Positions 22,081 through 25,883 of a DNA stretch of 43,630 bases are shown here, piece after piece; position 1 is the stretch's first letter; every line of letters starts with the position of its first letter. Origin of the DNA: Shigella phage Buco. The notes below the pieces were generated by a model. The model saw only the letters and a program-made list of their open reading frames with translations, had not been told where the DNA came from and did no database searches. Where the stretch lies: sequence record MK562503; one strand, given 5' to 3'. The translations under genes and the position numbers were made by a program.

Positions 22081-23634
22081 ATGCAAGGGCAGCAGAAAGA
22101 ATCACTGGAGTCCCTGTTTACTAAGGACTCGGACCCGACTGTATTAGACGCTGCCGAGCAATTTGCCCAGTGGACACTACCTACAGTGCTCACCCGGGAT
22201 ATCTCCGGAATGGACGGTAAGCGCACCTCCCTGCACCGCGACTATCAGAGTACGGGTGCGGTACTGGTGAACTCGGCATCGACCAAAGTTACTAATGCAC
22301 TGTTCCCACAAGGAGCCCCGTTCTTCCGGTTCGTGGACTCGCCAGACATGGCTGCTGCGGTAGCAGAGCTAGGTATCAATGGCACCGTGCAGTCACAGCA
22401 ATCACAAATTGAGTTATCAGCATCCAGCCTGGTGTTCTCTCGGGATAACTACGCCGCATCTCTCCGTGCCGTGAAATTACTCATGGTGACCGGGAATGCG
22501 TTGGAGTATTTCGACGAGGGCACCGGGCGTTCTCACATTTACAGTGTCCGAGAATACACGGTCCGCCGGGATGGTTCCGGGAATATCCTCCGGGTTGTGC
22601 TCAAAGAGCGCATCGCGGCTATGGACTTACCACAAGAGTTCCGGAGTGCACACCTGGGTCAGAAAGATGACTACGACGACGTAACGCTGTACACTGGTAT
22701 CTGTCTTGAAGATAACAAGTTCAAGATTTACCAGGAGGTGCAGCAGCAGCAGATTGGTGATGCCAGTACCTACCCCATTGACGAGTGCCCGTATACGGTG
22801 CTTGTGTGGAATCTGGTCAACGGAGAGCATTACGGTCGCGGCCTGGTTGAGGATTACGCGGGTGACTTTGCACGCTTGTCTGTGCTGAGCCAGGCCCTGA
22901 CCTTGTACGAGGTTGAGGCTGCGCGGCTGTACAACGCTGTGAGCGCAGGGGCGGGCATTGATGTAGACGCGGCACAGGCTGCTGAGACCGGCGATTATGT
23001 GCAGACCAGCGCAGCGCCGGGAACTAACCCGGGTATCTGGGCGGTTGAGAATGGTTCCGATAGGAAGATTATGTCTCTCCAGAGCGAAATCAGTATGATT
23101 GAGCAAAAGCTGGCGCGCGCATTCATGTACGCCGGGAACACTCGCCAAGGCGAGCGTGTTACAGCTTATGAGATTCGTACTAATGCTCAAGAGGCTCAGA
23201 ACTCTCTTGGAGATGCGTACAGCATCCTGAGTGACCACTGGCTGCGTAAGCGCGCTTATCTGTACACCGTGTACCAGTACCCTCCGATGCGTGCTATGTT
23301 TACACTTGGGGCTACCACCATTCAGATTCTGGTGGGTACAGCCTCGTTGAACAAGGCGGCGCAGGCAGACAGGTTACTGGAAGCGTCACAGAGTATTCAG
23401 CTTGTACTGCCAGTGCTGCAAGGGGCTACGAAGCGCACCAATCCGGACGCGGTCGTAGACTTTATTCTGGATGCATTCGGCGTAGTGAGCAGCAAGCTCA
23501 TGTACACCGAGGAGCAGCTTAAGCAGATTCAGGACCAGCAGGACCAGCAGCAGGCGGACCAGCAACGTAATCTGGAATTGGCACAGGCCAACCCAGAAGT
23601 CGCCGGGCAGCAGCTCGGTTTAATTCCATCATAA
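22081..23634 (+). CDS. Portal (head-tail connector) protein
   Basis: 517 aa; aaggag upstream; first large gene of the structural block, at the position of T7 gp8; Gln-rich C-terminus. Confidence 0.75.
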   Translation: MQGQQKESLESLFTKDSDPTVLDAAEQFAQWTLPTVLTRDISGMDGKRTSLHRDYQSTGAVLVNSASTKVTNALFPQGAPFFRFVDSPDMAAAVAELGINGTVQSQQSQIELSASSLVFSRDNYAASLRAVKLLMVTGNALEYFDEGTGRSHIYSVREYTVRRDGSGNILRVVLKERIAAMDLPQEFRSAHLGQKDDYDDVTLYTGICLEDNKFKIYQEVQQQQIGDASTYPIDECPYTVLVWNLVNGEHYGRGLVEDYAGDFARLSVLSQALTLYEVEAARLYNAVSAGAGIDVDAAQAAETGDYVQTSAAPGTNPGIWAVENGSDRKIMSLQSEISMIEQKLARAFMYAGNTRQGERVTAYEIRTNAQEAQNSLGDAYSILSDHWLRKRAYLYTVYQYPPMRAMFTLGATTIQILVGTASLNKAAQADRLLEASQSIQLVLPVLQGATKRTNPDAVVDFILDAFGVVSSKLMYTEEQLKQIQDQQDQQQADQQRNLELAQANPEVAGQQLGLIPS

Positions 23635-23644
23635 GAGGTGAGTT

Positions 23645-24481
23645 TTGGATAATACCAATACAGACATTACACACGTAGAGAACAGCGGCGGTCCGGTTAT
23701 CCCTGGTGCAGGGAAACCGCCCGCTCAAGCATCTAATCCGCAGTCTGTTCCTACGGATGCACCTGTCCCCGGTGACGCGAAGAACCCGCAAACCGGTGCA
23801 CAGGGTCTGGATATTGAGGCACTAGCCGCCGCCCTTAAGGGCAAGACCGGCACTGAGGCTGCACCCGCCGCTAGCACACAAGAACTGGCCCAGACGGGCA
23901 ACCCCGCTATTGATGCGGGCGTAGCTATGCTCACCAAAGTATCCGGTCTTAATGACGGGGATATGCAGCGAGCGATTGGCAAAGCAATTGAGTACGGTGA
24001 TAAGAACCTGATTGACAAGGCCTTTATCAAAGAGCGTTTCGGTGAGCATGCTGCGTATGCAGAGTTGCTTGCGGAGGCGTATCTCGATGATCAAGTAGGC
24101 CAGGCACAGCGGGCAGTAACTGCTGCTTACGACGTAGCCGGGGGTAAAGAGAGCTGGGATGTAGCTGCACAGGTATTCAAGGGCAAAGCCCCCGAGCACC
24201 TCCAGGCCGCTGCTCGCGCTCTCGCTAACTCTGGTGACCTCGCAGGCGCAGCTAAACTGGTTGTTGAAACCTGTCAGAGCATGGGCTTAATCCCAAATGT
24301 GAATCCACAGCTTAAAGGCGGTGCCGGTAACTATGGCGCGCTCTCAGCTGAGGCATTCTCGAAGGAGTACCAAGCTCTCCGCAAGGAGGCTGGAAATCGT
24401 AGTCTTGAATCTCATCAGTTCAAGCAACGATACGACAACCTGTTACAACGCCGTGCCGCTGGTAAGCGTCAGGGTATCTAA
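23645..24481 (+). CDS. Scaffolding protein
   Basis: 278 aa between portal and capsid; Ala-rich; TTG start after aagaggtgag. Assignment is positional. Confidence 0.55.
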   Translation: MDNTNTDITHVENSGGPVIPGAGKPPAQASNPQSVPTDAPVPGDAKNPQTGAQGLDIEALAAALKGKTGTEAAPAASTQELAQTGNPAIDAGVAMLTKVSGLNDGDMQRAIGKAIEYGDKNLIDKAFIKERFGEHAAYAELLAEAYLDDQVGQAQRAVTAAYDVAGGKESWDVAAQVFKGKAPEHLQAAARALANSGDLAGAAKLVVETCQSMGLIPNVNPQLKGGAGNYGALSAEAFSKEYQALRKEAGNRSLESHQFKQRYDNLLQRRAAGKRQGI

Positions 24482-24502: not shown

Positions 24503-25498
24503 ATGGCTAATACAGATTACGCTGGCAACCTCACTCGTCCGCACTGGGGTGGTGCTGCCTCCGACGTAGATATCCATCTGGAAGTCTACCAGAATGAAGT
24601 GGATACCCGCTTCCAGTACCAGGCGATGTTCCTGGGTCTCAGCTCTCAGCGCTCCGTGGCTGACCGCTCCAACACCTACCGTATTGACCGCCTGAACACC
24701 TCTTCAGTGAAAGGCCGTACCTCTGGCGTGGCGCTGGAACCGACCCCGGTACGCAACGACAAGATGCTGATCGTCGTGGATACGGTGCTGTACATCCGTA
24801 ACCCAATCGACTACCAGGATGACTGGACTGCTCCGGACTTCCTGACCGAGATGGGCCAGAACAACGGCTCTGAGTTCGCGGAGGTGTTTGACCAGGCGCA
24901 CCTGATTCAGCTCATCAAGGGCCGTTCCTGGGTTGCCCCGGCGCACCTGAAACCTGCGTTCTCCGACGGTATCGAAATCGAAGCGACTATCGACTCCGAT
25001 GTGACTACTCAGGCAGGTATGGAAGCTAACGCTATCGCCATCAACCAGGCTCACAAGGCTGGTATCGACGAGCTGATTAAGCGTAAGGTTCCGCTGAACG
25101 ACATGATCACTCTGGTCAGCACCGAGATTTATTCTCTGCTGCTGGAGCATCCGAAGCTGTTCAACAAGGACTGGGGTGATGCTAACGCCAACGGCTACAA
25201 AGAGCGTCGTGCTGTGCTCATGAACGGTATTCCGGTCGTCGAGTGCACCGAGTTCCCGGACGCAGGTACGCACCCACTGGGTAGCGCCTACACCGTGACC
25301 GCCGACGATGCCAAGTGCCGTATGGTGACTTTCAGCAAGTCCCGTACCCTGGTTACCGTAGAGGCGAAACCGTTCACCTCCCGCATCTGGGACGATGAGC
25401 AGAACTTCGCGAACGTGCTGGACTGCTACGCGATGTACCAGGTCGGGGAACGCCGTCCGGATACCGCCGCTGTAGTTAAGTTCAACGAAGCACCATAA
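24503..25498 (+). CDS. Major capsid protein
   Basis: 331 aa; aaggaa upstream; at the T7 gp10 position and followed by a strong terminator. Confidence 0.8.
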   Translation: MANTDYAGNLTRPHWGGAASDVDIHLEVYQNEVDTRFQYQAMFLGLSSQRSVADRSNTYRIDRLNTSSVKGRTSGVALEPTPVRNDKMLIVVDTVLYIRNPIDYQDDWTAPDFLTEMGQNNGSEFAEVFDQAHLIQLIKGRSWVAPAHLKPAFSDGIEIEATIDSDVTTQAGMEANAIAINQAHKAGIDELIKRKVPLNDMITLVSTEIYSLLLEHPKLFNKDWGDANANGYKERRAVLMNGIPVVECTEFPDAGTHPLGSAYTVTADDAKCRMVTFSKSRTLVTVEAKPFTSRIWDDEQNFANVLDCYAMYQVGERRPDTAAVVKFNEAP

Positions 25499-25509
25499 TA
25501 GGAGGCCCC

Positions 25510-25794
25510 GTGGCATTACTAAAATCCTTCGGGGCTGACGTTCTGGCTGCTAACGTAGCCAAACGCCAAGCCTATCATGACGTGCGTCTGGGTATTGCCC
25601 AGATGGACAATGGTGAGCCGGTAGTACCGGGTAAGCAGAGCAAGAGCAAACGCGCTCAGAAAGCTAGTAAGAGCCCGGCTACTGAGAAAGTACCTGATAA
25701 GGTAATCGAAGTACCTGAGGAAGATATCAAGCCGGATGAGTCGGCTAAGGATATTGAAGTAGACAAGAACCCGGAACCGGGTAAAGCAGAGTAA
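25510..25794 (+). CDS. Lys/Glu/Pro-rich small protein downstream of capsid
   Basis: GTG start 4 nt after aggagg; its frame is -1 relative to the capsid gene and is open from 25480. Confidence 0.4.
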   Translation: MALLKSFGADVLAANVAKRQAYHDVRLGIAQMDNGEPVVPGKQSKSKRAQKASKSPATEKVPDKVIEVPEEDIKPDESAKDIEVDKNPEPGKAE

Positions 25795-25799
25795 ACAGA

Positions 25800-25837
25800 G
25801 GCCCTGTCCATTCGTTTGGGCGGGGCCTTTTTTTTTT
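25800..25837 (+). terminator. Rho-independent terminator downstream of the capsid region
   Basis: 10-bp GC-rich stem (ggccctgtcc / ggacggggcc, two G-U pairs), 8-nt loop, then T10 at 25828..25837. Confidence 0.7.
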
Positions 25838-25883
25838 GGCTCCTGATTTATGGGCCTTTCGGACCTATAACTGAGGAACTAAA

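Follow-up and report, generated by a model that had tools for sequence, protein, structure and literature searches.

Between capsid gene and late terminator in Shigella phage Buco: gp38 is probably a separately translated small late gene and not a frameshifted capsid extension

In bacteriophage T7 the slot between the stop codon of the major capsid gene (10A) and the late terminator Tphi, ahead of gene 11, is occupied by an extra polypeptide that has no start of its own; it is added to the capsid protein, as the extension of gp10B, through a -1 frameshift at G GUU UUC (G GTT TTC in DNA). The annotation of the phiKMV record places the terminator directly after the capsid gene, with no such open reading frame (ORF), while in KP34 a small gene, gp43, lies in between, and the KP34 paper reported an extra band of ~42 kDa in sodium dodecyl sulphate polyacrylamide gel electrophoresis for which a T7-like capsid frameshift was speculated, with no mass spectrometry (PMC3082699). 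The present study concerns the same slot in Shigella phage Buco (record MK562503; earlier named HRP29, PMC11522302), the type of the genus Bucovirus in the subfamily Slopekvirinae, of which the whole stretch of 43,630 nucleotides (nt) was analysed and is called the window below. Its capsid region resembles that of KP34-like podophages, the closest record being that of Cronobacter phage Peggy at 85% nucleotide identity. Between the major capsid gene, gp37, and a strong terminator there is an ORF of 94 codons, for which an earlier note, made from the sequence alone, had offered two readings: a T7-like frameshift extension of the capsid protein, or an independent, 'decoration-like' protein. The independent protein stands; the frameshift and the qualifier do not. 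The product of 94 amino acids (aa) is 100% identical to the annotated 'gp38 [Shigella phage Buco]', and the ORF is gp38, a gene already annotated with no function assigned.

Our essential contention, which we regard as highly probable and which takes in the expression and the role of the gene as well as its coding status, is that gp38 is a separately translated small late gene followed by the main late terminator. It is a gene distinct from that of the capsid protein, it is under selection, its product has a helix, a basic patch and an acidic tail, and a homologue is both made and co-purifies with phage particles. The independence of the protein is supported by a conserved Shine-Dalgarno sequence and start, by the use of ATG in relatives, by ratios of nonsynonymous to synonymous substitution (dN/dS), by homologues that are exclusively stand-alone, and by mass spectrometry of one of them.

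The first line of evidence comes from the junction between the two genes. Relative to the capsid gene, gp38 of Buco lies in the -1 frame; a TAA at 25477-79 interrupts this frame, which from 25480 on is open over the last capsid codons, just as had been seen at the outset; the ORF also has the ribosome-binding site and GTG start that had been credited to it, with GGAGG at 25501-25505 and all 94 codons present. The spacer from the capsid stop to the gp38 start is 11 nt, and the TAA stop of gp37 is followed by an in-frame TAG. Related loci were collected by synteny, 80 from IMG/VR via the capsid protein and 12 metagenomic contigs via close gp38 homologues; tblastn of gp38 against 50,697 phage records had Peggy as its only match, because the family diverges fast and is of low complexity. 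The same small gene comes after that of the capsid protein in four named phages, with products of 56 aa in Peggy, 72 aa in Salmonella phage KKP 3828, and 60 aa each in KpV71 and KP34 (gp43). Within the Buco clade, which has a capsid protein of 331 aa and a small protein beginning MALLKSFGAD or MAVLKVFGAD, all 13 nearest relatives have a spacer of 12 nt (TAA TAG/TAA ..GGAGG.. GTG/ATG) that sets the gene in frame 0 behind two stops, and Buco is the sole member with 11 nt. The open stretch upstream of the start, 25480..25509, is on this comparison incidental: the overlap is not conserved, because the 12-nt spacer of the 13 nearest relatives leaves no such overlap. Read-through of the stop codon in the frame-0 relatives is ruled out as a further means of fusion by their tandem stops (TAA TAG or TAA TAA).

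More widely, the frame of the small ORF relative to the capsid gene could be called at 86 loci and is -1 in 67, 0 in 16 and +1 in three; TAA or TGA stands directly 5' of the ATG in 18 of the -1 loci. Two loci (L007 and L008) encode nearly the same 72-aa protein behind spacers of 11 and 12 nt respectively. Since the frame relation varies freely between near-identical phages, it cannot serve a fusion. The signals for initiation are stable, as the GGAGG is kept at all 12 aligned Buco-clade junctions and also occurs in Drulisvirus, and ATG replaces GTG at the same position in five of those 12. At one Drulisvirus locus (L059) the capsid frame passes its usual stop and ends at a TAA overlapping the ATG of the small gene (TTTAATG, spacer -1), which may be read as a further sign of a freely varying junction.

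The second line of evidence comes from selection on the codons and from a detected homologue. Pairwise Nei-Gojobori estimates of dN/dS for the N-terminal part (codons 2-33) are 0.135 in the Buco clade and 0.158 in Drulisvirus, compared with 0.24 and 0.22 for the rest of the ORF and 0.08 and 0.10 for the capsid gene, so that purifying selection on the N-terminal codons operates from codon 2 onward. The length of homologues varies from 53 to 98 aa through indels in the tail, all of which keep the reading frame. In the Drulisvirus fHe-Kpn01, the gene directly after the capsid gene g42 is g43, whose 60-aa product is 93% identical to KP34 gp43 and was classed as phage-particle-associated by LC-MS/MS (liquid chromatography coupled to tandem mass spectrometry) of purified particles, the criterion being at least 2 unique peptides and >5% coverage (PMC7291057 and its Table S2). 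This detection proves that g43 is translated and abundant, and it suggests a structural role.

The third line concerns the protein and its family. The composition of gp38 (K13, A12, V9, E9, D8 and P8 among 94 residues) makes the initial description of it as Lys/Glu/Pro-rich a fair one, although Ala, Val and Asp are equally common. In an AlphaFold2 (AF2) model made with an alignment of 37 sequences, residues 3-30 are predicted to form a single helix, with a predicted local distance difference test score (pLDDT) of ~75, and disorder is predicted in the remainder, which consists of a basic patch at residues 34-56 with a net charge of +5 (PGKQSKSKRAQKASK) and an acidic, Pro-rich tail at residues 57-94 with a net charge of -7 and five prolines. 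The constants of the family are an N-terminus of the form MA-[VLI]-[LI]-x-x-[FY], ~25 residues of helix, a linker that contains Pro, a tract of Lys/Arg (KAKAKAK, KKAKKAAK and RKATKKTRK are examples) and an acidic end, and its slot is always between the capsid stop codon and the late terminator. Buco gp38 belongs here both by position, as an unfused ORF in the range of 40-100 aa that comes directly behind the capsid stop and ahead of the late terminator, and by homology, through the N-terminal helix motif and the basic patch. KP34 gp43, fHe-Kpn01 g43, KpV71 gp39 and Peggy gp400 occupy the same slot before the tail tubular A gene and resemble gp38 in N-terminal pattern, helix, Lys/Arg-rich patch and acidic end. 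The members of this KP34 gp43-like family are without exception small, stand-alone proteins (42-98 aa), of which Buco gp38 is one of the longest; it differs in its GTG start and in an extra acidic, Pro-rich tail of ~40 aa. The long acidic tail is found in part of the Buco clade only, is missing in Peggy and others, and ranges from absent to ~45 aa among near-identical relatives; to judge from this distribution, it is dispensable.

A profile built from the gp38 family, Buco included, and searched against 1.84 billion representative proteins had 19 matches, 18 of them to stand-alone proteins of 46-77 aa aligned from residue 1 and the other a weak one to a repetitive 522-aa protein; none of the 19 was fused to a capsid protein. 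The family phrog_7403, which has no assigned function, matches 12 of the 37 family members. Homologues were found only in KP34-like phages (Slopekvirinae), KP34 gp43 and fHe-Kpn01 g43 among them. Besides phiKMV, several loci with 67-70% capsid identity lack the small gene and have the terminator directly after the capsid stop. Its absence from phiKMV and more distant relatives therefore makes gp38 a lineage-specific addition and not a core component of the head. Two observations concern other small ORFs of this region. Four of the loci with 67-70% capsid identity (L074, L075, L077 and L079), all with the terminator-like hairpin immediately after the capsid stop, have a different small ORF of 65-68 aa (MATIDLTGVW...) that contains no basic patch and is placed further downstream, between the hairpin and the tail gene. 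In the IMG/VR copy of a 45,135-bp Klebsiella phage genome (L036), an unrelated ORF of 87 aa (MMVKVDFGAALAALASGHKVSRSGWNGKG...) sits directly after the capsid gene and occupies the place of the MAVIATFG-type small protein of other loci.

As to expression, the block had been said to end in the strongest terminator of the genome, and 25797..25837 is indeed the best terminator-like site on either strand of the whole 43.6-kb window. Its stem, 25797..25830, contains eight G-C pairs and precedes a T10 run that extends to 25837, with a folding free energy (dG) of -25.8 kcal/mol; as a G+C-rich stem-loop with a U-run on the coding strand at the end of the unit, it is a predicted intrinsic terminator. 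In Drulisvirus and Koutsourovirus a terminator stands at the corresponding position, with a stem of different sequence. Terminators are annotated in the KP34 and phiKMV records, and these, like Tphi of T7 in the same slot, are G+C-rich hairpins with a U-run after the capsid block and before the tail genes. The phiKMV terminator directly follows the capsid gene, whereas in Buco, Peggy, KpV71, KP34 and KKP 3828, and so in each clade that was looked at for this order, the terminator comes after the small gene and not between it and the capsid gene. Since the terminator lies 3' of the small gene, gp38 would be transcribed on the abundant capsid mRNA ending at 25797..25837. The second-best terminator-like hairpin of the window, at 43497..43526, has 13 pairs and a poor T tail, and is situated near the right end, directly after a 109-aa ORF (43167..43496).

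Translation would then begin from the gene's own GGAGG and GTG, 11 nt after the capsid stop. This start is closed by a hairpin in which 25504..25510, from the end of the Shine-Dalgarno sequence through the G of GTG, pairs with 25530..25536 in codons 7-9 (TTC GGG GCT). The hairpin is kept in Buco-clade relatives at -14.8 to -23.7 kcal/mol, values that come from per-sequence folds and not from pair counts because MAFFT could not align the GTG-type and ATG-type hairpins in register. Changes within it are G-U-compatible, a G..C pair of the GTG-type starts is A..T in the ATG-type ones, and all 12 Buco-clade sequences have GGG for Gly8. Translational coupling classically takes this form, with a start site that is closed and lies 11-12 nt past the stop of a heavily translated gene. 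Because the gp38 start lies in a hairpin of ~-17 kcal/mol close after the capsid stop, initiation is probably coupled, in the Buco clade, to the ribosomes finishing the capsid gene. The 3' arm of the terminator (CGGGGCCU) is complementary to the gp38 start region (AGGCCCCG), but we treat this as a coincidence of two G+C-rich hairpins: the minimum free energy fold pairs each hairpin locally, and Drulisvirus does not have the complementarity. Rfam returned only sub-threshold chance matches for 25300..26000. The coordinates of all these features, and of the genes discussed below, are collected in Table 1.

Table 1. Position of gp38, its signals and the genes and elements discussed with it (Buco, MK562503)
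Feature	Position	Strand	Remarks
Portal (gp35)	22081..23634		
Scaffold (gp36)	23645..24481		
Major capsid protein gene gp37	24503..25498	+	331 aa, 36.9 kDa; phrog_267 major head protein, E 8.6e-90
Upstream open stretch in the gp38 frame (VQRSTIIGGP)	25480..25509	+	Overlaps final 19 nt of capsid gene
Shine-Dalgarno GGAGG of gp38	25501..25505	+	4 nt before GTG
Start-site hairpin of gp38	25504..25536	+	dG -17.6 kcal/mol, z -2.4
gp38 ORF	25510..25794	+	GTG start, 94 codons, 10.1 kDa
Predicted intrinsic terminator	25797..25837	+	14-bp stem, 6-nt loop, T10
Conserved stem-loop between terminator and gp39	25836..25882	+	Pairs with gp39 Shine-Dalgarno GAGGA (25873-25877)
gp39, tail tubular protein A / head-to-tail adaptor (T7 gp11 homologue)	25884..26441	+	phrog_446; identical to PDB 8ES4 chain 'Gp39'
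gp47, decoration protein	38869..39243		Chain of 8ELD
gp48, decoration protein	39254..39436		60 aa; chain of 8ELD

As the role of gp38, our tentative choice is that of a particle-associated accessory protein anchored by its N-terminal helix. The helix would dock on a conserved component of the virion or procapsid, the basic patch would make electrostatic contacts, and the protein would sit at a site, or at an occupancy, that symmetric cryo-electron microscopy (cryo-EM) does not resolve. Several observations weigh against this explanation or against parts of it. The predicted helix is only weakly amphipathic, and no function has been demonstrated for any member of the gp38 family. Pfam gave no match for gp38 or its family, the PDB none by sequence or by profile, and PHROGs none for Buco gp38 itself, which falls under the threshold. 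Nor is gp38 among the chains of any PDB entry: 8ELD comprises gp37, gp47 and gp48, and 8ES4 is gp39, while the related 23sf/23sh entries include the capsid protein, the two decoration proteins and the adaptor, and none contains a small-protein homologue. The absence of gp38 from the solved chains therefore means that it is not an ordered icosahedral component. With regard to coupling, the start-site hairpin is absent in Drulisvirus and thus specific to the Buco clade, and its 3' arm lies in conserved codons, so that its conservation may partly reflect the protein. Finally, the detection of g43 does not prove a structural role, because the fHe-Kpn01 particle preparation, in which 29 of 56 proteins were found, also carried the scaffolding protein and several non-structural proteins (g12, g13, g14 and g24), enzymes among them (PMC7291057).

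A second explanation, which we rank below an accessory particle protein and yet consider a real possibility, is that gp38 is a late non-structural protein that co-purifies through abundance. It could be an assembly helper that leaves procapsids, a nucleic-acid-binding or regulatory protein, or an anti-host factor. Such a protein would be missing from all solved virion models, as gp38 is; its Lys/Arg-rich patch offers a possible binding site for nucleic acid or for the acidic scaffolding protein; the enzymes and scaffolding protein in the fHe-Kpn01 preparation set a precedent for carry-over; and a gene that phiKMV and more distant relatives lack is not a core morphogenetic component. Carry-over into that preparation was selective, however, as neither the DNA polymerase, the primase and the helicase nor the majority of the small early proteins were detected (PMC7291057), and the strict position of gp38 and its co-expression with the capsid gene point to a role linked to head assembly.

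A bolder form of the accessory role is that the gp38/KP34-gp43 family is a real but structurally invisible virion component of KP34-like phages. Taken jointly with the proposals for its docking, patch, tail and T7 counterparts, we think this rather unlikely. The helix would act as an address that directs the protein to the procapsid, portal or core or, at low occupancy, to the shell; DNA or an acidic surface would be the partner of the Lys/Arg patch; and the acidic tail, which is variable, would be an appendage that can be spared. The small, Lys-rich ejected virion proteins gp6.7 and gp7.3 of T7 offer a superficial parallel, which rests on the annotation of the T7 record and on work on Ar-KM gp34, in that they too are small, charged and largely disordered. 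They are encoded upstream of the portal gene, unlike gp38, and the gp7.3-like gene of this phage group is the gene just before the portal and not gp38; hhalign found no similarity between the gp38 family and either T7 protein (probability ~0.1%).

That gp38 might instead be an outer capsid decoration or cement protein, ordered and bound stoichiometrically to the shell, was implied by the term 'decoration-like', and we judge it improbable. The decoration proteins of Buco are, in the literature, gp47 and gp48, which are of the alpha-paw and alpha-claw type described for PhiM1 and Ar-KM (PMC11440229). These proteins (Buco gp48 and gp47; PhiM1 gp44 and gp43; Ar-KM gp55 and gp54) are small and helical like gp38 and belong to the same phage group, but they form helix-turn-helix dimers, which bind to the T=7 capsid and can be recognised in cryo-EM maps, whereas gp38 is predicted to be a single helix followed by disorder, is absent from the maps, and is encoded away from the gp47 and gp48 genes (38869..39436). 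Paralogy with either is rejected for want of any profile similarity (hhalign probability <=0.2%). Co-transcription and co-termination with the capsid gene, the presence of a homologue in purified particles, and a conserved N-terminus with a variable, disordered tail, as expected of an anchor bearing a surface-exposed tail, would all suit a decoration protein. Nonetheless, the solved Buco capsid contains gp37, gp47 and gp48 alone, the gp37 chain of 8ELD and 8EM6 ('Gp37', 331 aa) being identical in sequence to the Buco protein, and the related 23sf phage has capsid protein gp17 with decoration proteins gp5 and gp6 and no small-protein homologue.

Less probable still is the frameshift borrowed from T7. 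A programmed -1 frameshift near the end of the capsid gene would fuse ~326 capsid residues to the gp38 frame and yield a minor species of ~47 kDa like T7 gp10B, marked by the junction peptide ...AAVVKF / VQRSTIIGGPVALLK. Its attraction is evident, since the Buco ORF is in the -1 frame, which stays open through the last 19 nt of the capsid gene, 49 related loci show an overlap of this frame with the 3' end of the capsid gene, the T7 10B extension occupies the same slot between 10A stop and Tphi, and an extra band was seen for KP34. Yet the slippery site is lacking. The first reading of the sequence had noticed no canonical heptamer, and a scan of the whole Buco capsid frame finds no X_XXY_YYZ; none of the six P/A-site pairs in the 19-nt overlap (25477..25498 examined) would allow the tRNAs to re-pair after a -1 slip; and a canonical heptamer is found at none of the 49 overlapping loci, that of KP34 (L085) included. 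In T7, by contrast, the slip occurs at a defined site and the extension has no start, while the Buco ORF has a Shine-Dalgarno sequence and GTG of its own, both conserved as initiation signals. The -1 relation stems from a single-nucleotide difference in spacer that is specific to Buco and is not kept by its nearest relatives, where the gene stands in frame 0 behind two stops in 13 of 13; 18 loci of the -1 type interpose a stop directly before the ATG, and further loci are in frame 0 or +1. Natural fusions to the capsid protein are missing from the 1.84 billion representative proteins, and the PDB chain of Buco gp37 is the unextended protein of 331 aa, a model that does not exclude a minor species. 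The comparative data thus come close to refuting the frameshift for Buco, and sequence comparison lends no support to the same idea for KP34 (PMC3082699).

The likeness to T7 nevertheless deserves to be stated accurately. Both the 10B tail and the gp38 tail are charged, of low complexity and not essential-looking, and both polypeptides fill the space between the major capsid stop and the late terminator. The tail specific to T7 10B (L098 5690..5863; ...PAQEAARTRAANKARKEAELAAATAEQ) is similar in composition to the end of the Drulisvirus small protein (GRKATKKTRKAADVAADTTEE) in the same genomic slot. As hhalign of the 10B tail against the gp38 family detects no homology, the resemblance would seem to be an analogy of position and composition only.

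Least credible of all is that the ORF is untranslated and the stretch merely the untranslated 3' part of the capsid mRNA ahead of the terminator: the lack of database domain matches, the low-complexity C-terminal half and the GTG start with its short 4-nt spacer might be cited for it, but dN/dS is well under 1 in two clades, the frame survives many indels, the Shine-Dalgarno sequence and start are conserved, and a homologue was found by LC-MS/MS with at least 2 unique peptides.

Beyond gp38, the interval leading to gp39, which is itself followed by the nozzle gene gp40, has features of its own. Directly 3' of the terminator, the stem-loop at 25836..25882 pairs a CCU in its 5' arm with the AGG of the gp39 Shine-Dalgarno sequence, ahead of the gp39 ATG at 25884. 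RNAalifold on the Buco clade and Drulisvirus gives it 17 pairs, three with compensatory changes, and the motif occurs nowhere else in the window. Possible functions are control of gp39 translation in transcripts that read through the terminator and service as a site for RNase III. The gap between the terminator of the small gene and the tail tubular A gene is also a hot spot for insertion. Two Buco-like contigs carry HNH endonuclease genes there (L089 2387..2860 and L097 1752..2225), and in both of them tail tubular A is called as only 111 aa; many Drulisvirus loci have inserts of ~550 nt in the same gap (e.g., L015, L021, L024 and L031).

Beyond correct annotation the significance of this result is small. 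It does spare Buco and the KP34-like phages a place among the T7-type capsid frameshifters, which had been suggested for KP34 in 2011 from a gel band, and it marks gp38 and its relatives as a small protein that is conserved, expressed, uncharacterised and produced together with the capsid protein, in a group of phages that is widely used for Klebsiella and Shigella therapy and has recently been solved by cryo-EM. If the family were a real virion component, its part would correspond in function to that of the T7 10B tail, or to that of gp6.7 and other small ejected proteins, but the protein would come from a cistron of its own, translated in coupling with the capsid gene, and not from frameshifting. 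A component of this kind, missed by symmetric reconstructions, would add an extra part to structural atlases of these phages and could provide a possible site for display or engineering.

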